Shown: one piece after another, positions 31,037 to 63,594 of the stretch
Position numbering within the stretch: the stretch's first letter is position 1
How the letters are laid out: every line of letters begins with the position of its first letter
NCBI GenBank assembly: GCA_963704725.1
Contig: OY969934.1
Span: forward strand, 480,001 to 544,000
DNA length: 64,000 bases
Reading direction: 5' to 3'
Source of the DNA: an uncultured Actinomycetes bacterium
GTDB taxonomy: Bacteria > Actinomycetota > UBA4738 > HRBIN12
The notes under the pieces: model-generated
What the model saw: only the letters and a program-made list of their open reading frames with translations
Told to the model about the DNA's origin: nothing
Databases searched by the model: none
Made by a program: the position numbers and the translations under genes

Positions 31037-32359
31037 ATGGTCCGGGTCCGCCTCCGCCCTCCGCTCCGCGAGCTCACGGGTGGGGAACGAGAGGTCTCCG
31101 TCGACGGCGCCACGGTGGGCGAGGCTCTCCTCCAGCTCGAGCGACGCCATCCCAAGCTGGCCGGCTGGATCCTGGACGATCAGGGCCGGGTGCGCGAGCA
31201 CGTCGCCGTCTTCCTGGACGGCGAGCGTGTGGGGGGAGAGGCCTCGGTGTCCGAGACGGCGAGCCTGGAGGTCATCGGCGCGGTCTCCGGCGGCTCCGAG
31301 CGCGCCGAGCTCCTCGTCGGCACGAAGAAGGGGCTGTTCGTGTTGCGGGGCGAGCGAGGCGGTCCGATGGACGTCGTCGCCCGCGCGTTCGCCGGCACGG
31401 CGGTCGAGTACGCGATGCGCGACCCGCGCACCGGGCGCTACTACGCGAGCGTGACGCACGGCCAGTTCGGCCCGCACCTGTATCTGACCGACGAGCCCAC
31501 CGGCGAATGGGAGCCGTGCGACGGCCCCCGGTTCGCGGACGGCGAGGACGCGAGCGTGAAGCGGATCTGGGTCGTGACGCCCGGCGAGGAGGACGGTCTC
31601 CTGTACGCGGGCGTGGACCCCGCCGCGCTCTTCGAGAGCCGTGACGGCGGCGCGACCTGGGAGCCGAACCGCGCCCTGTGGGATCACCCCGGCCGGCCCG
31701 ACTGGTTCCCCGGCGCCGGCGGCCTGATGGTCCATTCGATCGCGCCGTGGCCCGGCGACCCCGGCCGGCTCGCCATCGGCATCTCCTCCGTCGGGGTGTT
31801 CGTGACCGAAGACGGCGGATCCACGTGGGACGTGGGCAACGAGGGGATCGTGCCCCGGTACCTCCCCGAGGAGGCGCGATCACAGCCCTTCGGGCGGTGC
31901 GTCCACAACATGCACCGTTCACCCCTGCGGCCCGAGCGGCTGTTCATGCAGTTCCACGGGGGGGTCTACCGATCGGACGACGGCGGATGCTCGTGGACGG
32001 GCGTCGCGGCCGGTCTCCCGTCGGACTTCGGCTTCCCCCTCGTGGTCGACCCGGCCGACCCGAACGCCGCCTACGTGATCCCGTTGAACTCAGATGGGGA
32101 TCGGGTCACGGCCGAGGGACGCGTGCGGGTGTACGAGACCCGCGACGCCGGCCAGAGCTGGACGGCGCGGTCGCGGGGCCTCCCGGAGGCGGGGTATCTC
32201 ACGATCCTGCGCCAGGCGTTCGGCCACGACGGCGGCGATCCGCTCGGCCTGTACTTCGGGGCCACGTCGGGCGACGTCTTCGGCTCGGCCGACGCGGGCG
32301 CGACGTGGACACCGGTGGCCCGGGGCCTCGCCCCCGTGCTCTCGCTCCGCGTGGGCTGA
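31037..32359 (+). CDS. MoaD/ThiS-like ubiquitin-fold domain fused to a BNR/Asp-box beta-propeller (sialidase-like) domain
   Basis: aa 1-86 beta-grasp (GATVGEAL..HVAVFLDG..AVSGG); then LLVGTKKGLF and Asp boxes SRDGGATW, TEDGGSTW, SDDGGCSW, TRDAGQSW, SADAGATW. Confidence 0.85.
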   Translation: MVRVRLRPPLRELTGGEREVSVDGATVGEALLQLERRHPKLAGWILDDQGRVREHVAVFLDGERVGGEASVSETASLEVIGAVSGGSERAELLVGTKKGLFVLRGERGGPMDVVARAFAGTAVEYAMRDPRTGRYYASVTHGQFGPHLYLTDEPTGEWEPCDGPRFADGEDASVKRIWVVTPGEEDGLLYAGVDPAALFESRDGGATWEPNRALWDHPGRPDWFPGAGGLMVHSIAPWPGDPGRLAIGISSVGVFVTEDGGSTWDVGNEGIVPRYLPEEARSQPFGRCVHNMHRSPLRPERLFMQFHGGVYRSDDGGCSWTGVAAGLPSDFGFPLVVDPADPNAAYVIPLNSDGDRVTAEGRVRVYETRDAGQSWTARSRGLPEAGYLTILRQAFGHDGGDPLGLYFGATSGDVFGSADAGATWTPVARGLAPVLSLRVG

Positions 32360-54567: not shown

Positions 54568-55080
54568 ATGACACCCGGAGCCAAGACGGTGCACGAGGCA
54601 CACGAGCCGTTCCAGCGGCAGGTGGGCTCGATCCTGGTCCTGGCGGATGCGGTGGGCACCGTGCCGACGGCGGAGCTCGCCCGGCGGACGGGCGAGCTGC
54701 ACGAGTTCCTCGCGCACAGCCTGATGCCGCACGCGCTGGCCGAGGACTCGATCTTCTTCCCTGCACTGCGCCAGGGATCGGACGACCCCCGGACGGTGGC
54801 CATGACGCGCTGTCACCGCCAGCTGGCGCTGTTCACGGACGAGCTCGAGGCGCAGCAGGCCGTCCTGTCCGACCCCGACCGGGCGCGCGACGCGGAACGG
54901 GAGCTCAAGCGGATCCTCTACGGGACCCACGCCCTCCTCACGACCCACTTCGCGGCGGCCGAGGCGGCCTTCACGGACACGCTCGCCGGCAAGCTGTCGC
55001 CGGCGGAACGCGAGGAGCTGTTCGCGCGCATCGACCGCTATGCGGACGACGTCGCCAAGCTCCTCGAGTTCGGCGGCTAG
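54568..55080 (+). CDS. Hemerythrin/HHE domain protein (last motif degenerate)
   Basis: AAGGAGG RBS; H..H, PHALAED..FP, M..CH, LYG.HALL..HF; the final HxxxE motif reads HFAAAE. Confidence 0.72.
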   Translation: MTPGAKTVHEAHEPFQRQVGSILVLADAVGTVPTAELARRTGELHEFLAHSLMPHALAEDSIFFPALRQGSDDPRTVAMTRCHRQLALFTDELEAQQAVLSDPDRARDAERELKRILYGTHALLTTHFAAAEAAFTDTLAGKLSPAEREELFARIDRYADDVAKLLEFGG

Positions 55081-55108
55081 CCCCCTCGATCCCGAGCACC
55101 CCCAACGC

Positions 55109-55151
55109 AGGGCCGTTCGGCCCCCTCGACCCGGGACGGTCTTTCGGTCCT
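55109..55151 (+). promoter_or_regulatory. OsdR/DosR-like binding sites upstream of dsrE
   Basis: AGGGCCGTTCGGCCCC (55109-55124, 14/16 to AGGGCCGATCGGCCCT) and a weaker ACGGTCTTTCGGTCCT (55136-55151); candidate -10 TACGGT at 55197. Confidence 0.55.
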
Positions 55152-55236
55152 CGGTCACAGGTTCCGGCTGTCTCCGCGGCCCGCGAGGCGCGCACCTACG
55201 GTGTGAGTCGAACGACATCAACCAGGAGGTGCCGCC

Positions 55237-55602
55237 ATGGCGGACGAGAAGCTCGTGATCATGCTGACGCACGGCCCGCAGGACGCGGAGCTGGCGACGA
55301 TCCCGTTCGTGATGGGGTGCGCCGCGCTGGCCTCGGACGTCGACTGCGTCCTGGGGTTCCAGGCCGACGCGGTCGAGCTCGTCCACGAGGGCATCGCCGA
55401 CAAGGTCGAGGCGCCGGAGTTCCCGCCGCTCGCCACGCTGTTGTCCACGTTCCGTGAGCTGGGCGGGACGCTGCTCGCCTGCAGCCCCTGCCTGAAGAGC
55501 CGCGAGATCCCGGCGGAGGCCCTGGTCGAGGGCACCGAGGTCGTGGCGGCGGCCCGCTTCGTCGTCGAGCTGACGTCGGCGACCAACACGCTCGTCTACT
55601 GA
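55237..55602 (+). CDS. dsrE: DsrE family sulfurtransferase-like protein
   Basis: KLVIMLTHGP..ATIPF, conserved ACSPC..R, EVVAAA. Confidence 0.82.
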   Translation: MADEKLVIMLTHGPQDAELATIPFVMGCAALASDVDCVLGFQADAVELVHEGIADKVEAPEFPPLATLLSTFRELGGTLLACSPCLKSREIPAEALVEGTEVVAAARFVVELTSATNTLVY

Positions 55603-55632
55603 GGCTCCGCGCGACCACGAAGGAGGAACGAC

Positions 55633-55899
55633 ATGAGCATCGTGCTGACCGAGACGGACCTGTCCGGCATCGAGGCCGGCAAGGTCGTCGACGCCCGTGG
55701 CAGCGCCTGCCCGGGCCCGCTGCTGGAGGCGAAGAAGGGCATCGGCGCCGTGGCCATCGGCCAGGTCCTCGAGATCTGGTCCGGCGACCCGCAGACGAAG
55801 TCGGACATCGAGACCTGGGCCGGCAAGGTCGGGCACGGGTTCCTCGGGGTCGCTCCCGCCGACGGCTACGACCGCATCTTCGTGCGACGGGCCAAGTGA
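55633..55899 (+). CDS. tusA: TusA family sulfur carrier
   Basis: VDARGSACPGP (CPxP), GQVLEIWSGDP..DI..W. Confidence 0.9.
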   Translation: MSIVLTETDLSGIEAGKVVDARGSACPGPLLEAKKGIGAVAIGQVLEIWSGDPQTKSDIETWAGKVGHGFLGVAPADGYDRIFVRRAK

Positions 55900-55934
55900 C
55901 CACCCACCGGACCGCGGGAAGAGGGTGAAGCCGC

Positions 55935-56378
55935 GTGTCCGCCGCCCGTGAGGCGGAGGAGACCCCGACCAGGCTGCTGGTCCTGGCCTCGCTCCTGTGC
56001 GCCTACCCCGGGATCGACTCGACCGGGCAGGCGCACATGGACTACCCGGCGAACACGTACGTGCTGCCGACGCCCGATCCGGTCATGTTCCCCGAGACCT
56101 TCTACCTGTACTGCTTCGATCACGGCGTCGACGGGATCCTGATCGCGTCCTGCGGGACCGACAGCCCCTACGAGGGCGCGTACGAGCAGCTCGCGGCCCG
56201 GATCGATCACGTGTACGTCCGGATGAAGGAGCGCGGGCTCGACGTCCGGCGGCTGAAGCTGACGGCGATCTGCAGCGTGTGCTCGAAGGCGTTCGTCAAG
56301 GAGGTCGGCGATCTCGCGGCGCTCGTCGCCGAGCTCGGCCCGGCATGCGACGAGATGCGGGAGGCGGTGCCGGCGTGA
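55935..56378 (+). CDS. mvhD: MvhD-like hydrogenase iron-sulfur delta subunit (atypical Cys pattern)
   Basis: CAYPGIDSTGQAHMDYP, GVDGILIASC, RRLKLTAICSVC. Confidence 0.75.
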   Translation: MSAAREAEETPTRLLVLASLLCAYPGIDSTGQAHMDYPANTYVLPTPDPVMFPETFYLYCFDHGVDGILIASCGTDSPYEGAYEQLAARIDHVYVRMKERGLDVRRLKLTAICSVCSKAFVKEVGDLAALVAELGPACDEMREAVPA

Positions 56379-57700
56379 GCGACGGCTCGCCGAGGCGGAT
56401 CGAGACCGACGTCCTCGTGATCGGCGCGGGCATCGCCGGCCTCCAGGCCTCCCTCGACCTGGCCGACCAGGGCCACGGTGTCCTGCTCGTCGAGCGCGAG
56501 GCGAGCATCGGGGGCCGGATGATCGCGCTGTCCAAGGTCTTCCCGACCATGGACTGCTCGAGCTGTATCACCACGCCGAAGATGTCGGCGGCGGCCCACC
56601 ACGAGGGCGTGGCCACGCTCACGTACACCGACGTCGAATCGCTCGAGCCGGCGGGAGACGGGTTCGACGCCACGCTCGTCCGCCGGCCGCGGTACGTGGA
56701 CGAGGACGCGTGCATCGGCTGCCGCCTGTGCGAGTACGCCTGCCCGGTCGACGTGCCGCACGAGTTCGACGGCCAGCTGGGGGCGCGGCGCGCCATCTAC
56801 ATCCCGTTCGGCACGGCGATCCCGCAGAAGGCGGTCGTCGACCTGCCGAACTGCATCCTTTGCGGCAAGTGCGAGAAGGCGTGCCCCACGGACGCCCTCG
56901 ACTTCACGCAGGAGCCGGAGACCATCCTGGTGCACGCGTGCGCGGCGGTCCTCACCACGGGCTTCCGGCCCACGCCCACGGGCGCGAAGCGCGAGTACGG
57001 CGGGGGGGTCGCGGCGAACGTGATCTCCGGCCTCGACATGGAACGCTTGCTGTCGCCGAACGGCCCGTACGGCCGGGTGCTTCGCCCCTCGGACGGCAAG
57101 ATCCCCGAACGCATCGCCTACGTGCAGTGCGCGGGATCGCGGGACGAGACGCTCGGCGTCCCGTACTGCTCACGCGTGTGCTGCATGTACGCGATCAAGC
57201 AGTCGATGCTCCTGTCGGGCGCCCTGCCGCTGGCAGACATCACGATCTACTACATGGACATCCGCGCGTTCGGGAAGGGCTACGAGGAGTTCTTCCAGAC
57301 CGCGCGGGCCATGGGCATCGAGTTCGTCAAGGCCAAGGTGGCGCGGATCGAAGAGATCCCCGGCGGCGATCTCCGGCTCCGCGTCGAGCTGCAGGAGGAG
57401 GACGGCCGGATCGCCGACGCCGAGCACGACCTCGTGGTCCTCTCGGTCGGGATCCAGCCCTCGGGCGACGTCCGGCGGTTCGCGCCGGTGGCGACCGACG
57501 CCTACGGGTTCGTCCGCTCGCTCGATCCGGCGCTCGACGTGACGAGCACCGACGTGCCGGGCCTGTTCGCCGCCGGCACGGCCCTCGCCCCGAAGGACAT
57601 CGTCGACACGGTGGCCGAGGCGAGCGCGGTGGCGGTCCGGGTCTCGGGGTACCTGCGAAGAGCGGAGTCGAGGCCGCTCGTGGGGGCGTCCCATGCCTGA
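56375..57700 (+). CDS. hdrA: HdrA/Qmo-family flavoprotein with an inserted 2x[4Fe-4S] ferredoxin
   Basis: GAGIAG, KVFPTMDCSSC, CIGCRLCEYACP, CILCGKCEKACP, QCAGSRD..YCSRVCCMYAIKQ, YMDIRAFG, PKDI. Confidence 0.9.
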   Translation: MSDGSPRRIETDVLVIGAGIAGLQASLDLADQGHGVLLVEREASIGGRMIALSKVFPTMDCSSCITTPKMSAAAHHEGVATLTYTDVESLEPAGDGFDATLVRRPRYVDEDACIGCRLCEYACPVDVPHEFDGQLGARRAIYIPFGTAIPQKAVVDLPNCILCGKCEKACPTDALDFTQEPETILVHACAAVLTTGFRPTPTGAKREYGGGVAANVISGLDMERLLSPNGPYGRVLRPSDGKIPERIAYVQCAGSRDETLGVPYCSRVCCMYAIKQSMLLSGALPLADITIYYMDIRAFGKGYEEFFQTARAMGIEFVKAKVARIEEIPGGDLRLRVELQEEDGRIADAEHDLVVLSVGIQPSGDVRRFAPVATDAYGFVRSLDPALDVTSTDVPGLFAAGTALAPKDIVDTVAEASAVAVRVSGYLRRAESRPLVGASHA

Positions 57701-59534
57701 GTGCCGGATCGGCGTCTACGTCTGTCACTGCGGCGGCAACATCAGCGACGTCGTCGACGTGCAGGCCGTGGCGGACCGTGCCGGCGCGGACGACGAGGTG
57801 GTCGTGGCCCGGCACCTCCCGTTCATGTGCTCCGACGAGGGCCAGTCCTCGATCGAGAAGGACGTCGAGGAGCTCGGGCTCGACCGGGTCGTGGTCGCCG
57901 CCTGCACCCCGAGCCTGCACGAGACGACGTTCCGCCGCGCGGTGTCCCGAGCCGGGCTGAACCCGTACCTGTACCAGCACGCCAACATCCGCGAGCAGGT
58001 GAGCTGGGCGCACGTCCACGACCACGCCGCCGCGACGGACAAGGCCGATCGCATCGTGCGGGCCGCCGTGGCCAAGGCATCGGCGCTCCGCGCCCTGGAC
58101 CGCGTGCGGGTCGCGGCCGTGCATCGCGCCCTGGTGGTCGGCGGCGGCGTGGCGGGGCTCCGGGCCGCGATCGACGTCGCGAGTCGGGGCATGGAGGTCG
58201 TCCTCGTCGAGCGCAGCGCGACGCTCGGCGGGCACGCGCTCCGGCTCGGCCGCGCCTATCCGACCGACGAGCCCGGGCGGGACCTGGTCGCGAGGCTCGT
58301 CGAGGCGATCCGGGCCGAACCGCTGATCGACGTCCGGCTCACCACCGAGGTCGTCGGGGTGAGCGGGTACGTGGGCGACTTCCGCGTCGAGGTGCGATCG
58401 GTCGATCCGAGCCGCAACGGGGACGCGAGGACCGAGGAGGTCGAGGTCGGGGCGATCGTGCTCGCGACCGGGTTCCGTGACTACGAGCCGGCCGAGGGGG
58501 AGTACGGAACGGGGTCCCCGCGCGTCATGACGCTGGCCGCCTACCAGGAGCGCCTGTTCTCCTGCCCCGCGGACGCCGATCTCGGGGCGGTGCTCGGGCT
58601 CGAAGGACCGGTACGCTCGGTCGCCTTCCTCCACTGCGTGGGCAGCCGGCAGGTCGCCGGCGTCGACGAGGTCACGGGAGAGCTCAACGCGTACTGCTCG
58701 CGCGTGTGCTGCACGGCCACGGTCCGGGCGGCGGCCGGGACACGCCGCCGCTTCCCCGGCGTCCGGGTGGTCGACGTCTACCGGGACATCCGGACCTACG
58801 CGCGCGACCAGGAGGCGGCGTACCGGGAGGCCGGCGAGGCCGGGGTCCTGTTCGTGCGGCTCCCCTCGGACGAACGCGCCCGGGTCGAGGCCGCCCCCGG
58901 GGACGATGTCTATCCACTGGTGGTCCGGGCCCGCGACACGCTCACGTTCGGGGCGGAGCTGGAGGTGCCCGTCGACCTCGTCGTGCTGGCCACGGCCATG
59001 GAGCCCGGTGGAGCGGAGCAGCTCGTCGCGATGACCAAGGCGCCCATCGGCGCCGACGGGTTCCTGTTGGAGGTCCACCCCAAGCTCCGCCCGGTCGAGA
59101 GCGCGATCCCAGGGATCCTGCTCGCCGGGACGGCCCGCGGCCCGATGGACATCACCGAGAGCACGACCTCGGCCTCGGCGGCCGCGGCCAAGGTGGCGAC
59201 GCTCCTGGCGCGCGATCACGTCGAGATGGAGCCGTTCGTGGCGCGGGTCGACCCGTCCCGGTGCACGGGTAGCGGGTCGTGCGTTCCGGCGTGTCACTAC
59301 GCCGGCGCGATCGGGCTCCAGGAGGTCGAGCTCGAGGACGGCGTCGTCGCGAAGCGGGCCTACGTGAACCCGGTCGCGTGCAAGGGCTGCGGCGCGTGCG
59401 TGGCGGCGTGCCCGAACGGCGCGATCGACGTCCAGGGATGGGAGATCGGGCAGTACCTCGCCATGGTCGACGCGATCACGAGCGAGCCGCCTGTCGTTCC
59501 GGCGAACGAGGTGGCGGAGGCGGTGACGGCATGA
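57693..59534 (+). CDS. hdrA: HdrA/Qmo-family flavoprotein with N-terminal domain and C-terminal ferredoxin
   Basis: IGVYVCHCGGNI, AACTP..HE, NIREQ, GGGVAG, HCVGSR..YCSRVCC, HPKLRPVE, CKGCGACVAACP. Confidence 0.9.
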   Translation: MPECRIGVYVCHCGGNISDVVDVQAVADRAGADDEVVVARHLPFMCSDEGQSSIEKDVEELGLDRVVVAACTPSLHETTFRRAVSRAGLNPYLYQHANIREQVSWAHVHDHAAATDKADRIVRAAVAKASALRALDRVRVAAVHRALVVGGGVAGLRAAIDVASRGMEVVLVERSATLGGHALRLGRAYPTDEPGRDLVARLVEAIRAEPLIDVRLTTEVVGVSGYVGDFRVEVRSVDPSRNGDARTEEVEVGAIVLATGFRDYEPAEGEYGTGSPRVMTLAAYQERLFSCPADADLGAVLGLEGPVRSVAFLHCVGSRQVAGVDEVTGELNAYCSRVCCTATVRAAAGTRRRFPGVRVVDVYRDIRTYARDQEAAYREAGEAGVLFVRLPSDERARVEAAPGDDVYPLVVRARDTLTFGAELEVPVDLVVLATAMEPGGAEQLVAMTKAPIGADGFLLEVHPKLRPVESAIPGILLAGTARGPMDITESTTSASAAAAKVATLLARDHVEMEPFVARVDPSRCTGSGSCVPACHYAGAIGLQEVELEDGVVAKRAYVNPVACKGCGACVAACPNGAIDVQGWEIGQYLAMVDAITSEPPVVPANEVAEAVTA

Positions 59535-59854
59535 CGGGGCCCGAGACCGAGGTCGAGGCGACCGAGCCCAAGAAGAAGCCCGGCACGATCGGGGCGTACA
59601 AGCAGCGCCACGGACCGGCCTCGCCGGAGCTGCTCGAGCGGGTCCGCGTGCAGAACCACGTGAAGGCCGCGGTGCGCCGCGCGCTCGCCGCCGGCCCGCT
59701 CACGCCGCCGGAGGTCGCCGCGGCCGCGGAGATCTCGCCTCGGGAGGCGCTGTGGACCCTCATCGCGATGCGCAAGTACGGCGTCGTCGTCGAGAACGGA
59801 CAGGAGGGCGACTACGTTCGGTACGCGCTCTCCGGAAAGGACCCGCGCGCATGA
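59531..59854 (+). CDS. Small winged-helix-like protein
   Basis: ATGA overlaps at both ends; GPLTPPEVAAAAEIS...LIAMRKYG.V.E..Y. Confidence 0.7.
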   Translation: MTGPETEVEATEPKKKPGTIGAYKQRHGPASPELLERVRVQNHVKAAVRRALAAGPLTPPEVAAAAEISPREALWTLIAMRKYGVVVENGQEGDYVRYALSGKDPRA

Positions 59855-61059
59855 GCGTGGCCGTGGAGGAGCAGCGAGCGCCGGCCGTCAGGATCGGCGA
59901 GAGCCTGATCCCCGAGCTCGAGCGATTCGGGGCCGTCGATGTCTCGGCGTGCTTCAACTGCGGGACCTGCTCGGCCGTGTGTCCCATCGCCGAGGACGAC
60001 GGGGCGTTCCCGCGCCGGATCATCCGCTTCGCGCAGCTCGGCATGCGAGACCAGCTCCTGGCGAGCCACGAGCTCTGGACCTGCTACGGCTGCGCCGAGT
60101 GCACGGAGTCGTGTCCGCGGCAGGCGGATCCCGCCGGGTTCATGGGGGCCGCCCGCAGCTACGCGATCGCGAGCTACGACCGGACCGGCCTCGCCCGGCG
60201 CCTCGCGACCTCCGTCCCGTTCGCGGGCATCTTCATCGGGCTCCTCGTCCTGGTCCTGGCGTCGTTCATGTATACGGCGCATCAGCCGGTGCACGGCTCC
60301 GAGCTCGCCTTCTTCGAGTACGTCCCCGCCTCGTACATCCACGAATTCGGGCTCGTCGTGTTCGGGCTGTTCGGCGTCGCAACCGTCGCAGGCCTCGTGC
60401 AGATGATCCGTCACGTGACCGGGCCGGCGCGCCGGGACGACGCCCCGGACCCGGCCGGCGCCGGCATGGTCGAGGCGGTGCGCTACTCGGTGGTCCAGGA
60501 GTCGCTCGGCCAGCGGCGCTTCCGCGAGGAATGCGCCGACGATCCCGAGGCGTCGGCCCGGCCCTGGTACCTGCGGCGTTGGTTCGTGCACGCCGCGACC
60601 ATGTGGGGCTTCCTCGGCCTTCTCGGGGCCACGCTCGCCGACTTCGCCCTCGAGCTCACGGGCGTGAAGCCGACCGGGACGCAGGTGCCGGTCTGGTATC
60701 CGGTCCGGCTGCTCGGGACCCTCGCCGGCCTGCTTCTCGTGTATGGGACGACGATGATGATCCTCCGCCGGGCCCGCGGTACCGACCGGTCGTCCGCGAG
60801 GTCCACGGTGTGGGACTGGTCGTTCCTGTGGATGCTGTGGGTCGCCGGCCTGTCCGGGTTCGCCCTGGAGCTGGCGCTCTACCTTCCGAGGGCTCCCTCG
60901 TGGGGATACACGACCTTCCTGCTCCACGTCGGCGTGGCGATGGCGCTGGTCCTGCTGGCGCCATTCAGCAAGTTCGCGCACGCGATCTACCGGCCGGTCG
61001 CGCTCGCGGTCTTCCGTCTGCGCGGGGGCGGCCGCTCGCGCGACTCCGCGACCCGCTGA
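59851..61059 (+). CDS. qmoC: QmoC-like membrane subunit (HdrC-like 2x[4Fe-4S] + NarI/HdrE-like heme b domain)
   Basis: CFNCGTCSAVCP, FPRRIIR, WTCYGCAECTESCP, about 6 TMs with His (YIHEFG, WFVHA, LLHVG, SKFAH). Confidence 0.8.
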   Translation: MSVAVEEQRAPAVRIGESLIPELERFGAVDVSACFNCGTCSAVCPIAEDDGAFPRRIIRFAQLGMRDQLLASHELWTCYGCAECTESCPRQADPAGFMGAARSYAIASYDRTGLARRLATSVPFAGIFIGLLVLVLASFMYTAHQPVHGSELAFFEYVPASYIHEFGLVVFGLFGVATVAGLVQMIRHVTGPARRDDAPDPAGAGMVEAVRYSVVQESLGQRRFREECADDPEASARPWYLRRWFVHAATMWGFLGLLGATLADFALELTGVKPTGTQVPVWYPVRLLGTLAGLLLVYGTTMMILRRARGTDRSSARSTVWDWSFLWMLWVAGLSGFALELALYLPRAPSWGYTTFLLHVGVAMALVLLAPFSKFAHAIYRPVALAVFRLRGGGRSRDSATR

Positions 61060-61063
61060 TCCG

Positions 61064-61630
61064 TCACCCGGCCGGCCGCTCGAGCCCATCGAGCGAGCGG
61101 ACCAGGAGCCGCAAGAGCTGCACCCGCTCGCTGGGGGTGAGCGCGCCGAAGAGCTCGGCGTTGGCACGCTCGCTCACCCTCGCTCGCGCGCGCAGCGCGC
61201 GCCGACCGTCCTTCGTCAGATCCAGCGCGTAGCGGCGCCGGTCGCGCTGGTCGCGCCGGCGCTCGACGAAGCCGGCCGCCTCGAGCCAGTCGACGAACGC
61301 GACCAGGTCGCTCGGGTCGAAGCGGAGCCGCTCGCTGGTCTCTCGCTGGCTGGACACTCCGAACTCCTCGAGGCAGGCGAGGATCGCGAAGTGCGGGAAG
61401 CGCATCTGCTCCGCGGGATCCGCGGCCTCGGCGATGCGTTGCTGTCCGAGTCGGAACGCCTGGCGCATCAGCAGGAACATGACGGCGCTCGGGTACCGCA
61501 GCAGGCTCGCCGGGTACTCGAGGGGCGACTCGCCGGGCGAGGCCATCCGCAGGCCCTTGATCGCGCGACGGCGCATCCTCGGGCCCGGACCGACCGCCGA
61601 CTCCGGCGGGGTGGCGGGGTTGACACGCAT
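61064..61630 (-). CDS. MarR family transcriptional regulator
   Basis: FAILACL..SQRETS..LE..GFVERRRDQRDRRRYALDLT..G; start may be further downstream. Confidence 0.88.
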   Translation of the reverse strand: MRVNPATPPESAVGPGPRMRRRAIKGLRMASPGESPLEYPASLLRYPSAVMFLLMRQAFRLGQQRIAEAADPAEQMRFPHFAILACLEEFGVSSQRETSERLRFDPSDLVAFVDWLEAAGFVERRRDQRDRRRYALDLTKDGRRALRARARVSERANAELFGALTPSERVQLLRLLVRSLDGLERPAG

Positions 61631-61665
61631 GGGAACCCATCCTTATCGTGGGTGATACCCATGAT
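61620..61665 (+). promoter_or_regulatory. Promoter for the ABC exporter with overlapping palindromes (probable MarR operator)
   Basis: TTGACA (61620), 18 nt, TATCGT (61644); palindromes ATGGGAACCCAT (61629-61640) and ATCGTGGGT-GAT-ACCCATGAT (61645-61665). Confidence 0.65.
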
Positions 61666-62707
61666 TTACCACGATCAAGGTTCCGGCGCCACCGCGGAGG
61701 GTCCCGAACCGGGCGCCGAAGCCGCCGCCGGTGGCGAGCCCGTGATCTCGGTCCGGGGGCTGGAGAAGCGATTCGGCGAGCTGGTCGCGGTGGCCGGCGT
61801 CGACTTCGAGGTCTACCGGGGCGAGACGTTCGGGTTCCTCGGCCCCAACGGCGCCGGCAAGACGACGACGATCAACATGCTCTGCACGCTCGCGACGCCC
61901 ACCGCCGGCGCCGCGACCGTGGCCGGGTTCGACGTCCTGCGCGAGCGGGACGAGGTCCGGCGGAGCATCGGGCTCGTGTTCCAGGACACGACGCTCGACT
62001 CCTACCTTACGGCCGAGCGGAACCTGCGCTTCCACGCCGAGCTCTACGGCGTCCCCCGCGCCGAGATCGAGCCGCGGCTGAAGCAGGTCATGGAGATCGT
62101 CGGGCTGTGGGACCGGCGGGGAAGCAAGGTCATGGAGTACTCGGGCGGCATGATGCGCCGGCTCGAGATCGCGCGCGGGCTGCTGCACTACCCGCGCGTG
62201 CTGTTCCTCGACGAGCCCACGATCGGCCTGGACCCGCAGACGCGGTCGCACATCTGGACCTACATCTCGGACCTGAAGAAGCGCGAGGACATCACGATCT
62301 TCCTGACCACGCACTACATGGACGAGGCGGAGAACTGCGACCGCATCGCGATCATCGACAACGGCAGGATCGTGGCGCTCGAGACGCCCGAGGCGCTGAA
62401 GGCGAGCATCGGCAAGGATCGGGTCCAGATCCAGACCCCGGACGACGAGGCGACGATCGCCGCGCTCCGCGACCGGTTCGGGCTCGAGGCCGGCGTGCAC
62501 GAGGACGCCGTCACCTTCTCGGTGGAGTCGGGCGAGCAGTTCGTCCCGCGCCTGTTCGCCGAGCTCGGGATCCCCATCCAGGCCGTGCGGGTGTCCCGGC
62601 CCACCCTGGACGACGTGTTCATGTCGTACACGGGCAAGACGATCCGCGACGCGGAAGGGGAGAACCCGCTCCGGGCCATGGTCAAGGCGTTCCGAAGGAG
62701 GCGGTGA
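61661..62707 (+). CDS. DrrA-type ABC exporter ATP-binding protein
   Basis: [56 protein letters not shown]. Confidence 0.92.
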
Positions 62708-63594
62708 GGGTGGCCACGGAGACCGCGCGGCGACCGGAGCCGATCGCCTCCGAGGGCCCGGTCCGGGCCGCCCGCCGGGGCCTCGCGCACGAGTTCCGGG
62801 GAGCCAAGATCGTGTGGCACCGCGAGATGATCCGGTTCTGGGAGGACCGCTCGCGGCTGGTGGTGTCGCTCCTTCAGCCGGTGCTCTTCCTGTTCGTCCT
62901 TGGCACCGGCCTGTCGTCGCTGGTCTCCGGAGGGACCGGTGGGCTGTCCCTGCGCACGTTCCTGTTCCCCGGCGTGCTGGCGATGTCCACGATGTTCACG
63001 GCCATGTTCTCCGCCGCCTCCCTGGTCTGGGATCGCGAGTTCGGGTTCCTGCGCGAGATGCTCGTGGCGCCGGTGGGGCGCGGCGCGATCGTGGTCGGCA
63101 AGGCGCTGGGCGGTGCGACGGTGGCCACGGTGCCCGGGGTCGTCATGCTCGCGTTCGCCGGCGCCGTTGGGGTGCCCTACGACCCGGTGTTGTTCGTGAC
63201 CCTGGTCGTCGAGCTGCTCCTGCTTTCGTTCGTCCTGACCACGGTGGGTATCGCGGTGGCCGGTCGTATCAAGCAGATCCAGTCGTTCATGGCGCTCACC
63301 CAGATGTTCCTGATGCCGATGCTGTTCCTGTCGGGTGCCATGTTCCCGCTGTCGAACCTGCCGGGCTGGCTCCACGTGCTGACCCGGATCAACCCGCTCA
63401 CGTACGCCGTGGACCCGATGCGCCGGGCGGTGTTCTCGCACCTCGACGTCTCCGCCGCCGTCCGGGACACCCTGAGCCCCGGCGTGACCTGGGGGTCCAA
63501 GGTCGTGCCCGTCGGCCTCGAGCTGCTGCTCGTCCTGCTGATGGGGGTCGGCCTGCTCGCCGTCGGCATCGCCGAGTTCCGCCGCGCGGAGTAG
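62704..63594 (+). CDS. DrrB-type ABC-2 exporter permease
   Basis: [51 protein letters not shown]. Confidence 0.92.

Follow-up and report, generated by a model that had tools for sequence, protein, structure and literature searches.

The Gene Cluster and Its Organisation

A cluster of eight genes was analysed in a 64,000-nucleotide stretch of DNA (hereafter, the window) from an uncultured actinobacterium (assembly GCA_963704725.1, contig OY969934.1, positions 480,001 to 544,000). The genes encode a hemerythrin-domain protein, two sulfur carriers of the DsrE and TusA families, and five proteins that resemble the quinone-interacting membrane-bound oxidoreductase (Qmo) and the heterodisulfide reductase (Hdr), namely an MvhD-fold protein, two HdrA-like flavoproteins (QmoA-like and QmoB-like), a small winged-helix protein and a QmoC-like membrane subunit. 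Judged from its sequence, the operon is intact and represents a variant of the Qmo/Hdr family that is widespread and uncharacterised, with sulfur carriers as its dedicated partners. A first-pass annotation, made from the same DNA alone, had listed eight co-directional genes in the order hemerythrin, dsrE, tusA, mvhD, hdrA, hdrA', winged helix and qmoC-like; the Pfam and NCBIfam matches, together with the coordinates, bore this out (Table 1).

Table 1. Genes of the cluster, with their positions in the window and the family matches of their products.
Gene product	Position	Strand	Length, match or basis
Hemerythrin-domain protein	54568..55080	+	170 aa; PF01814, 33 bits, E 9.6e-8
DsrE-family sulfur carrier, C82-S-P-C85 motif	55237..55602	+	PF02635, 44 bits, E 2.9e-11
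TusA sulfur carrier, C26-P-G-P	55633..55899	+	PF01206, 64.9 bits, E 5.9e-18
MvhD-fold protein, rewired cysteines and C113-x-x-C116	55935..56378	+	FlpD/MvhD PF02662, 53.4 bits, E 3.4e-14
QmoA-like (HdrA-like flavoprotein 1)	56375..57700	+	Pyr_redox_2 and Fer4; NF040770 HdrA2, 456.8 bits, model positions 137-562
QmoB-like (HdrA-like flavoprotein 2)	57693..59534	+	Pyr_redox_2 and Fer4; NF040770 HdrA2, 489.3 bits
Winged-helix protein without cysteines	59531..59854	+	107 aa; no Pfam/NCBIfam match; predicted model
QmoC-like subunit	59851..61059	+	Fer4_8 and Nitrate_red_gam (Pfam); NF038018 qmoC, 200.6 bits

The last five genes, described as overlapping in the first-pass annotation, are indeed joined by overlaps of 4-8 nt that can be read in the DNA: GTGA between mvhD and qmoA, 8 nt between qmoA and qmoB, and ATGA both between qmoB and the small open reading frame (ORF) and between the small ORF and qmoC. 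The upstream genes are separated by gaps of 156 nt (hemerythrin-dsrE), 30 nt (dsrE-tusA) and 35 nt (tusA-mvhD), and a Shine-Dalgarno-like GGAGG lies ahead of the dsrE, tusA and mvhD starts. The hemerythrin gene begins at the ATG at 54568, which is preceded by AAGGAGGA and is the start that had been called before; a Shine-Dalgarno site was read for this start too. No terminator-like sites were found by the site scan inside 54568-61059. The window had also been described as free of aprAB, hdrB, dsrAB and hydrogenase genes, and none appeared among the cluster genes and the 21 called ORFs scanned between 28639 and 63594.

Conservation and Distribution of the Gene Order

A scan of a species-representative genome collection found 125 relatives, of which the best 80 loci were kept. 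In 55 of these 80 loci the contig reaches 6 kb or more beyond the QmoC-like match on its upstream side, the other 25 being cut by contig ends. The obtained results showed a tusA gene upstream in 53 of the 55, in the order tusA-mvhD-qmoA-qmoB-(small)-qmoC, and two contig-cut loci (L067, L092) also have tusA upstream. Together with the 53, these two make up 55 loci in which tusA and a QmoC-like gene share one stretch, and tblastn at E <= 1e-6, with queries drawn from the loci themselves, placed a DsrE-family gene no more than 3 kb away in every one of them. Pfam confirmed DsrE or DrsE_2 in 33 of the 88 flank ORFs scanned; these 88 were drawn from 103 candidates, and most of the remainder were covered by other Pfam scans. 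The dsrE/tusA linkage, whose lack of conservation would by the first-pass annotation have counted against its proposal, is conserved across phyla.

The holders belong to the Chloroflexota, Bacteroidota, Ignavibacteriota, Latescibacterota, Verrucomicrobiota, Spirochaetota and Aminicenantes, and further include a 'Deltaproteobacteria' metagenome-assembled genome (MAG), Desulfobacterales, Heimdall- and Thorarchaeota and Nitrososphaeria. Within the phylum of the host, 13 of 401 sampled genomes matched the QmoC-like protein at E <= 1e-30, and among 41 relatives a full-length match was confined to the host genome and G021 (67% identity). Two genomes of the host's own genus (G006, G007) gave no full-length QmoC match and only short HdrC-like matches, which resemble the match of a distal hdrC in the host.

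Orthologues with 65-67% identity occur in three of the 22 other genomes of the family (G021, G400 and G308; loci L120, L121 and L122), in the order dsrE-tusA-mvhD-qmoA-qmoB-small-qmoC-hemerythrin. The genes flanking the cluster in the window were not matched beside it in these three genomes, bar a weak DrrA-like match 2.6 kb upstream in G400, and the cassette therefore occupies differing genomic surroundings. Within the family, the QmoA-like and QmoB-like proteins share 77-85% identity, and QmoC, at 66-67%, is conserved far less well.

Subunits of the Predicted Complex

In NCBIfam, HdrA2 is the best match of both flavoproteins, and the QmoA-like, QmoB-like and MvhD proteins combined tile this model. 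The QmoA-like protein corresponds to the FAD domain with an inserted ferredoxin domain, the QmoB-like protein, which lacks a fused MvhD, to the N-terminal four-cysteine domain followed by the FAD domain and a ferredoxin domain at the C-terminus, and the MvhD protein to the fused MvhD tail. The QmoB-like protein also matched the solved methanogen HdrA 8rvu_a with 411.6 bits. Cysteine conservation was assessed in alignments of ORFs of 0.8-1.35 times the query length, so that insertion-bearing forms of QmoA are uncounted. Cysteines C252, C265, C269 and C270 of the QmoA-like protein (C-x12-C-x3-C-C) are present in 36/36 rows and its eight ferredoxin cysteines in 29-30 of the 36, while the four cysteines of the QmoB-like protein that match the same set are kept in 63/63 rows and its N-terminal four in 58-62 of the 63.

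The QmoC-like protein consists of an HdrC-like 2x[4Fe-4S] domain fused to a NarI-like haem-b membrane domain with about six hydrophobic segments. It aligns to positions 6-359 of the 360 in the NF038018 model, at a score below the 300-bit cut-off. Its eight cluster cysteines and three histidines (H247, H359 and H377) were found in all 68 aligned rows, and H164 in 53 of them. The pairing of two HdrA-like subunits with a fused membrane subunit of the HdrC/NarI type supports the Qmo-shaped module that had been proposed.

The predicted model of the MvhD-fold protein (predicted local distance difference test, pLDDT, 91.5) superposed on MvhD of the methanogen complex (5odc_D) with template modelling (TM) scores of 0.84/0.89 and a root-mean-square deviation of 1.8. 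The window protein keeps two of the five canonical MvhD cysteine positions, and the family keeps subsets only, the patterns across 54 rows counting 35, 5, 5, 3, 2, 1, 1, 1 and 1. Of the 54 rows, 53 have a CxxC motif (C113-x-x-C116 in the window protein) that comes after the fourth strand; two rows carry it alone, and L095 has the canonical set without it. This CxxC may provide either replacement ligands for a [2Fe-2S] cluster or a redox-active dithiol.

The small protein was modelled as a winged helix (pLDDT 83.8) with fold matches of the ArsR/SmtB type, and its homologues hold the same operon position across phyla. Two arrangements were seen across the loci: a gap of about 290 nt that holds a separate small gene, or a gap of about 0 nt together with a QmoB-like ORF that is 50-125 aa longer. 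In the Bacteroidales locus L028, the QmoB-like ORF ends in 70 residues that form the small-protein domain (hhalign 98.5%, E 1.5e-15). The small protein is therefore doubtful as solely a transcription factor, a role to which its Atlas neighbours might point, as these are proteins of 92-105 aa that are unnamed or automatically named ArsR-like; it is probably a subunit of the complex.

The Sulfur Carriers and the Hemerythrin Gene

The TusA protein belongs to the PF01206 family and has the conserved cysteine of the CPxP motif. Residues C26, P27, G28 and P29 are present in 56/56 aligned rows, and an alignment of 30 sequences contained 14 invariant columns, among them K34, K35, W62 and G72; measured against a mean family identity of about 47%, this invariance in the alignments is unusually tight. 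The DsrE protein belongs to the DsrE/TusD family (PF02635). Its C82 aligns with the cysteine of the solved structure 3mc3, and an additional C85 gives a CxPC motif. Residues C82, P84, C85 and R89 are present in all 16 aligned cluster-linked DsrE proteins of the window's type. A table excerpted from PMC13188914 lists a 'DsrE-like' selenoprotein with a UxxC motif, which, as a likeness in motif, fits a redox-active CxxC in DsrE.

A hemerythrin gene also lies beside the cluster in G021, G400 and G308 and in the Chloroflexota loci L033 and L034. Its position differs, being upstream of dsrE in the window and downstream of qmoC in the three family relatives, and the proteins share only 39-44% identity.

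Operon Variants and Recurrent Neighbours

The QmoA-like gene carries an insertion of 1.3-1.4 kb in about 26 loci (among them L025-L029, L030, L032, L039 and L042), which are mostly from Bacteroidota and also from Chloroflexota (L030, L032). In L028 (L028:3052-5799) the insertion encodes a GltD/NfnB-like NAD(P)H module (Fer4_20 and Pyr_redox_2 by Pfam, run for this locus), which replaces the inserted ferredoxin domain in a protein of 915 aa.

The Desulfobacteraceae loci (L104:8010-9769, L100-L103) encode a 100-aa HdrC-like protein and an HdrB-like protein with a CCG domain in place of QmoC. This swap indicates that HdrB is exchangeable with QmoC and is not foreign to the system, and, as HdrCB is a disulfide-reducing module, it suggests that thiol, disulfide or persulfide chemistry is part of the system. 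Downstream, these operons continue with dsrE and then metV/metF-like genes; upstream of them is a sigma-54/PAS activator. The Heimdallarchaeal locus L037 is headed by a gene resembling sulfide:quinone oxidoreductase (SQR) or flavocytochrome c sulfide dehydrogenase (FCSD), and contains two TusA and three DsrE-family genes.

Regulators recur near the loci, namely ArsR-type proteins (six loci) and sigma-54/PAS activators (four loci). Other recurrent neighbours are OsmC (three loci), peroxiredoxin, thioredoxin, rubrerythrin or ferritin, rhodanese (L063, L080) and metallo-beta-lactamase-fold proteins (two loci each), and a TauE protein (one locus, L089).

Co-occurrence with AprAB and HdrB, and Separation from Type I Qmo

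Co-occurrence was analysed in 30 holder genomes, where the incompleteness of MAGs limits every statement of absence. AprA exceeded the cut-off in five of them, of which three are Desulfobacterales and the other two are MAGs of Ignavibacteria and Nitrososphaeria, respectively; 22 of the 30 encode a NiFe hydrogenase large subunit of any type. An HdrB-like match of at least 100 bits was obtained in 19 of the 30, the host included, and one genome had a match over the curated cut-off; at the 100-bit level, none was seen in the closest Chloroflexota holders (G043-G046). The first-pass annotation had reasoned that the cluster would be an ordinary Qmo/Hdr system if aprAB or hdrB/mvhAG co-occurred with it consistently. 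No such pattern emerged, and the claim that the cluster is not tied to AprAB holds for the host, which lacks aprA, aprB and dsrA, as well as for most holders.

Two genomes (G062, G063) contain a canonical aprA-linked qmoABC in addition to the TusA/DsrE-linked cluster, which demonstrates that these are two distinct systems. In their canonical clusters, QmoB is followed by the MvhD part in frame order, and QmoC is 28-29% identical to that of the window.

A quick maximum-likelihood tree of QmoC was calculated for a thinned set of 43 sequences, with a midpoint root used for drawing only. The set comprised the window, 32 hand-picked loci from the scan or from relatives (33 less L109; L069 and L095 are without tusA), two more sequences from the same phylum, and eight sequences taken as type I, of which three lie at aprA loci (L105 and L107 also being beside a QmoB with an MvhD part) and five beside a QmoB with an MvhD part. 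A branch of length 1.8 sets the eight type I rows apart, with a support of 100 in the Shimodaira-Hasegawa-like approximate likelihood ratio test (SH-aLRT). The window QmoC groups with G021 and G400 (support 100), and this group nests among Chloroflexota rows (support 98 for the 6-row and the 9-row sets). Given that the genome is actinobacterial, this nesting points to a transfer between the two phyla, in one direction or the other.

An ordinary aprBA-linked Qmo was rejected on the basis of the missing aprA and aprB, the 28-29% identity, the split in the tree and the AprA count of 5/30.

Sulfur and Hydrogen Genes in the Host Genome

The host genome is a single contig (C1) of 3.45 Mb and is 95% complete. 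A search of sequencing runs listed no RNA run for it and two DNA runs with small shares (0.07 and 0.05). WhiB proteins mark Actinobacteria; three WhiB-family genes were found in the genome, while among 14 control genomes only Corynebacterium gave matches, which supports the host being an actinobacterium.

The first-pass annotation had called the system one 'without AprAB or HdrB' and had proposed a genome-wide search for aprAB, sat, dsrAB, hdrB and hydrogenase genes. The part on AprAB stood, for the operon and for the whole genome: no gene exceeded the cut-off for aprA (best 30.9 bits against 641.75) or aprB (28 bits against 135.65, the matches being ferredoxin domains of HdrA genes), and the profile search found no dsrA. 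The other three are present outside the operon. A sat gene is located 150 kb away (C1:691427-692554), and a cluster 2 Mb away (C1:2473440-2479939; L011:8440-14939) encodes an HdrC-like protein, a CCG-domain HdrB, a 674-aa HdrA, a canonical MvhD (188.7 bits) and a NiFe hydrogenase large subunit. The absence of HdrB therefore holds for the operon only; the distal hdrCBA-mvh cluster qualifies that statement but does not explain the operon. The distal cluster looks complete, as a group 3c-like hydrogenase with a heterodisulfide reductase, and the same cluster is found in G021.

Three further TusA genes occur in the genome, each adjoining a gene of the DrsE_2 family. Two of these pairs flank a 456-aa SQR-like pyridine-nucleotide-disulfide oxidoreductase (C1:3320211-3322826; L118:6196-8830), and a GAF-PAS histidine kinase is encoded near the latter. 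The third pair (C1:96942-97718; L119:5939-6736) lies near a Ni-superoxide dismutase gene and the gene of its S26 peptidase.

Proposed Function and Alternative Explanations

Building on the observed gene content, operon structure, conserved carrier linkage and separation from type I Qmo, we propose that the cluster encodes a quinone-linked HdrA-type complex that would reduce (or oxidise) carrier-bound sulfane sulfur or a carrier disulfide, a proposal to which we give an even chance. The complex would be composed of the QmoA-like, QmoB-like, MvhD-fold and winged-helix subunits and of the QmoC-like cytochrome b/FeS anchor, and its dedicated partners would be TusA and the CxPC-type DsrE, not adenosine 5'-phosphosulfate (APS) reductase.

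The architectures of HdrABC-MvhAGD and of Qmo are established and served as the template for assigning three electron ports. The first would be the menaquinone pool, reached through QmoC, which would replace HdrBC as the high-potential exit. The second would be a low-potential carrier that docks through the ferredoxin domain inserted in the QmoA-like protein, with the NAD(P)H module taking this place in Bacteroidota, and the third would be the MvhD-fold subunit, serving carrier-bound sulfur. Wherever the order is complete, mvhD comes next after tusA. This adjacency, the standing of TusA and DsrE as the sole conserved partner candidates, and the exchange of QmoC for HdrCB favour a quinone-linked carrier-sulfur reductase. 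In such a reductase, which is possibly confurcating, electrons from quinol, perhaps together with reduced ferredoxin, would reduce the TusA/DsrE persulfide or the CxxC disulfide of DsrE and yield sulfide. A heterotroph would by this route dispose of persulfide made by an SQR-like enzyme, and the recurrent neighbours, which deal with thiols, sulfur or oxygen, fit this role. The invariant cysteines of TusA and DsrE and the conserved haem and cluster ligands of QmoC also speak for the proposal.

Several observations weigh against this proposal. No catalytic site for sulfur redox chemistry (CCG/HdrB, molybdopterin or sirohaem) is recognised in the QmoC-type operon, and the HdrB-like genes found elsewhere in 19 of the 30 holders leave room for an unlinked catalytic partner. 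Two of the 55 loci (L069, L095) hold a QmoC-like gene without tusA. At least two canonical cysteines are also kept in 51 of the 53 MvhD-fold rows that bear the CxxC, and the motif may only provide replacement ligands for the [2Fe-2S] cluster. Lastly, the substrate, the contact between carriers and complex and its docking site, and the direction of electron flow are inferred.

A further reading is put forward tentatively, at well below an even chance: the complex might perform HdrA-based bifurcation or confurcation with the TusA/DsrE persulfide as the mid-potential substrate, thereby coupling sulfane sulfur/sulfide to quinone and ferredoxin (NAD(P)H in Bacteroidota).

The main rival places the reaction in the oxidative direction. 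Sulfide or carrier sulfane sulfur would act as the mid-potential electron source at the flavin, and bifurcation, with menaquinone reached through QmoC and with ferredoxin or NAD(P)+ as the other acceptor, would yield a low-potential reductant as well as quinol. Its strength lies in the one-to-one match to a bifurcating HdrA, with an MvhD port, an inserted ferredoxin domain and QmoC as the high-potential exit; background values for the potentials of S0/H2S, menaquinone and ferredoxin also roughly balance, and an SQR/FCSD-like gene heads the Heimdallarchaeal locus. However, there is no evident site for a two-electron oxidation of sulfide, the MvhD-fold subunit would pass single electrons, and many of the recurrent neighbours are stress-type and not energy genes. 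We rate the oxidative direction as unlikely, although still the most serious competitor.

It is less probable still that the operon is an ordinary Qmo/Hdr electron-transfer module working for an unlinked catalytic enzyme, such as the distal HdrCB-Mvh or another reductase, with TusA and DsrE merely being co-regulated relay genes. The hdrCBA-mvhD-NiFe cluster elsewhere in the host and in G021 would supply such an enzyme, the HdrB-like matches in the 19 holders could do so elsewhere, and excerpts of PMC10504309 report a 'type II' Qmo from two sulfate reducers, V. moutnovskia and A. degensii. The distal cluster, however, has its own HdrA and MvhD, and the two genomes of the same genus that gave short HdrC-like matches (G006, G007) are without a full-length QmoC match. 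Furthermore, an HdrB-like match of 100 bits or more is missing from 11 of the 30 holders and AprA over the cut-off from 25, and the carrier linkage persists in Bacteria as well as in Archaea.

The least probable explanation, to which we assign very little weight, is that the carriers hold thiosulfonate derived from thiosulfate or tetrathionate, as archaeal DsrE3A/TusA do, and that the complex cleaves it reductively or handles thiosulfate: DsrE3A is called an established thiosulfonate carrier in excerpts of PMC11094781, and a TauE sulfite exporter and rhodaneses flank some loci, but these are rare among the 88 flank ORFs scanned (one and two, respectively), no YeeE-type transporter was present among the flanks scanned, and the window DsrE has a CxPC motif and was not placed in the DsrE3A group.

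Implications of the Carrier Link

The constant companions of the complex are TusA and a DsrE-family protein, in Bacteria and Archaea alike and mostly without genes for dissimilatory sulfate or sulfite metabolism, and from this link follows a concrete hypothesis, open to testing, on the substrate of an orphan respiratory-type complex that is widespread. In the present case it is found in an actinobacterial lineage, with a QmoC nested among those of Chloroflexota and a hemerythrin gene alongside. If the proposed function is correct, heterotrophs of sediment and soil would reduce or oxidise intracellular sulfane sulfur by a quinone-linked route, with consequences for the tolerance of sulfide, for cryptic sulfur cycling and for how far flavin-based bifurcation extends. 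Should the bifurcation reading hold, the complex would represent a so far unrecognised route of sulfur redox metabolism, one that heterotrophs and fermenters use across many phyla and also among the Asgard archaea.

Neighbouring Genes in the Window

The genes around the operon are unrelated to sulfur. Sugar uptake genes, a GNAT gene and a metallophosphoesterase gene lie upstream, and a MarR-family gene (61064-61630, minus strand) and a DrrA-type ABC exporter pair (61391-63594, plus strand) immediately follow qmoC. The called MarR and DrrA ORFs overlap across 61391-61630, so that a start is probably mis-set. A promoter-like site was located at 61620-61649 in this region, and the MarR gene and the DrrA pair are probably a separate unit outside the cluster. 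Further upstream, an ORF at 31037-32359 (plus strand) showed weak ThiS, BNR and sortilin-type Pfam matches in one frame, and may represent two genes or a mis-called start.

Comparison with Known Systems

All parts of the operon come from known families. In the literature searched, with subscription sources lying beyond that search, no description of a TusA/DsrE-linked Qmo-like operon was found, the matches being concerned with canonical Qmo, sHdr or the YTD cluster. The type II Qmo group is already in print.

In the DsrC/DsrMK(JOP) system, a quinol-linked complex in the membrane reduces a small protein whose two cysteines carry sulfur between them, which provides a working analogy to the proposed function, and DsrK has a CCG catalytic domain. 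In contrast, DsrC, DsrK and DsrAB are not present here, as judged from the search for dsrA.

Type I QmoABC is the quinone-interacting membrane-bound oxidoreductase of sulfate reducers and Chlorobi. The window operon shares with it the two HdrA-like flavoproteins and the fused membrane subunit of the HdrC/NarI type with haem-b histidines. Three of the four features of type I membership are nevertheless missing. The QmoC-like score (200.6 bits) is below the 300-bit qmoC cut-off; MvhD is encoded by a separate upstream gene, whereas in type I it is fused to the C-terminus of QmoB; and the linked partners are TusA and DsrE, whereas those of type I are aprBA (and sat). The winged-helix subunit is a further difference, being an addition of the window operon.

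HdrABC-MvhAGD of methanogens (PDB 5odc) has in common with the operon the HdrA domain set, the MvhD fold and the HdrC-like domain. It differs in that the operon splits HdrA into two paralogous subunits, fuses HdrC to a membrane cytochrome b, does not keep the five-cysteine MvhD set, and is without MvhAG and HdrB (no CCG domain), CCG genes being located elsewhere in the genome.

The sHdr-LbpA system resembles the operon in being an Hdr-type complex that is genetically tied to TusA and DsrE-family sulfur transferases, as described in excerpts of PMC11094781 and, for a Thermomicrobium cluster, of PMC6776052. The same excerpts present sHdr as a soluble complex built on HdrB1/B2/C1/C2 with lipoate-binding proteins, whereas the window operon has QmoC, two HdrA paralogues and MvhD instead. 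Membership of sHdr was rejected, as no sHdrB1/B2/C1/C2 or lipoate-binding gene is among the eight genes of the operon (LbpA was not searched genome-wide).

A further comparison is with 'type II' QmoABC, which was reported in 'Ca. Vulcanisaeta moutnovskia' and Ammonifex degensii, both sulfate reducers (Neukirchen et al. 2023, PMC10504309). In the excerpted text, this group is described as closer to typical HdrA than to bacterial QmoAB and as occurring with or without Apr/Dsr, with no function assigned. The TusA/DsrE link, the split MvhD and the winged-helix subunit of the window operon are absent from that excerpted account. The QmoA-like and QmoB-like proteins match HdrA strongly, and QmoC splits from the eight type I rows with a support of 100; from these observations, made on sequences other than those of V. 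moutnovskia and A. degensii, we infer that the window operon is a putative member of type II Qmo.

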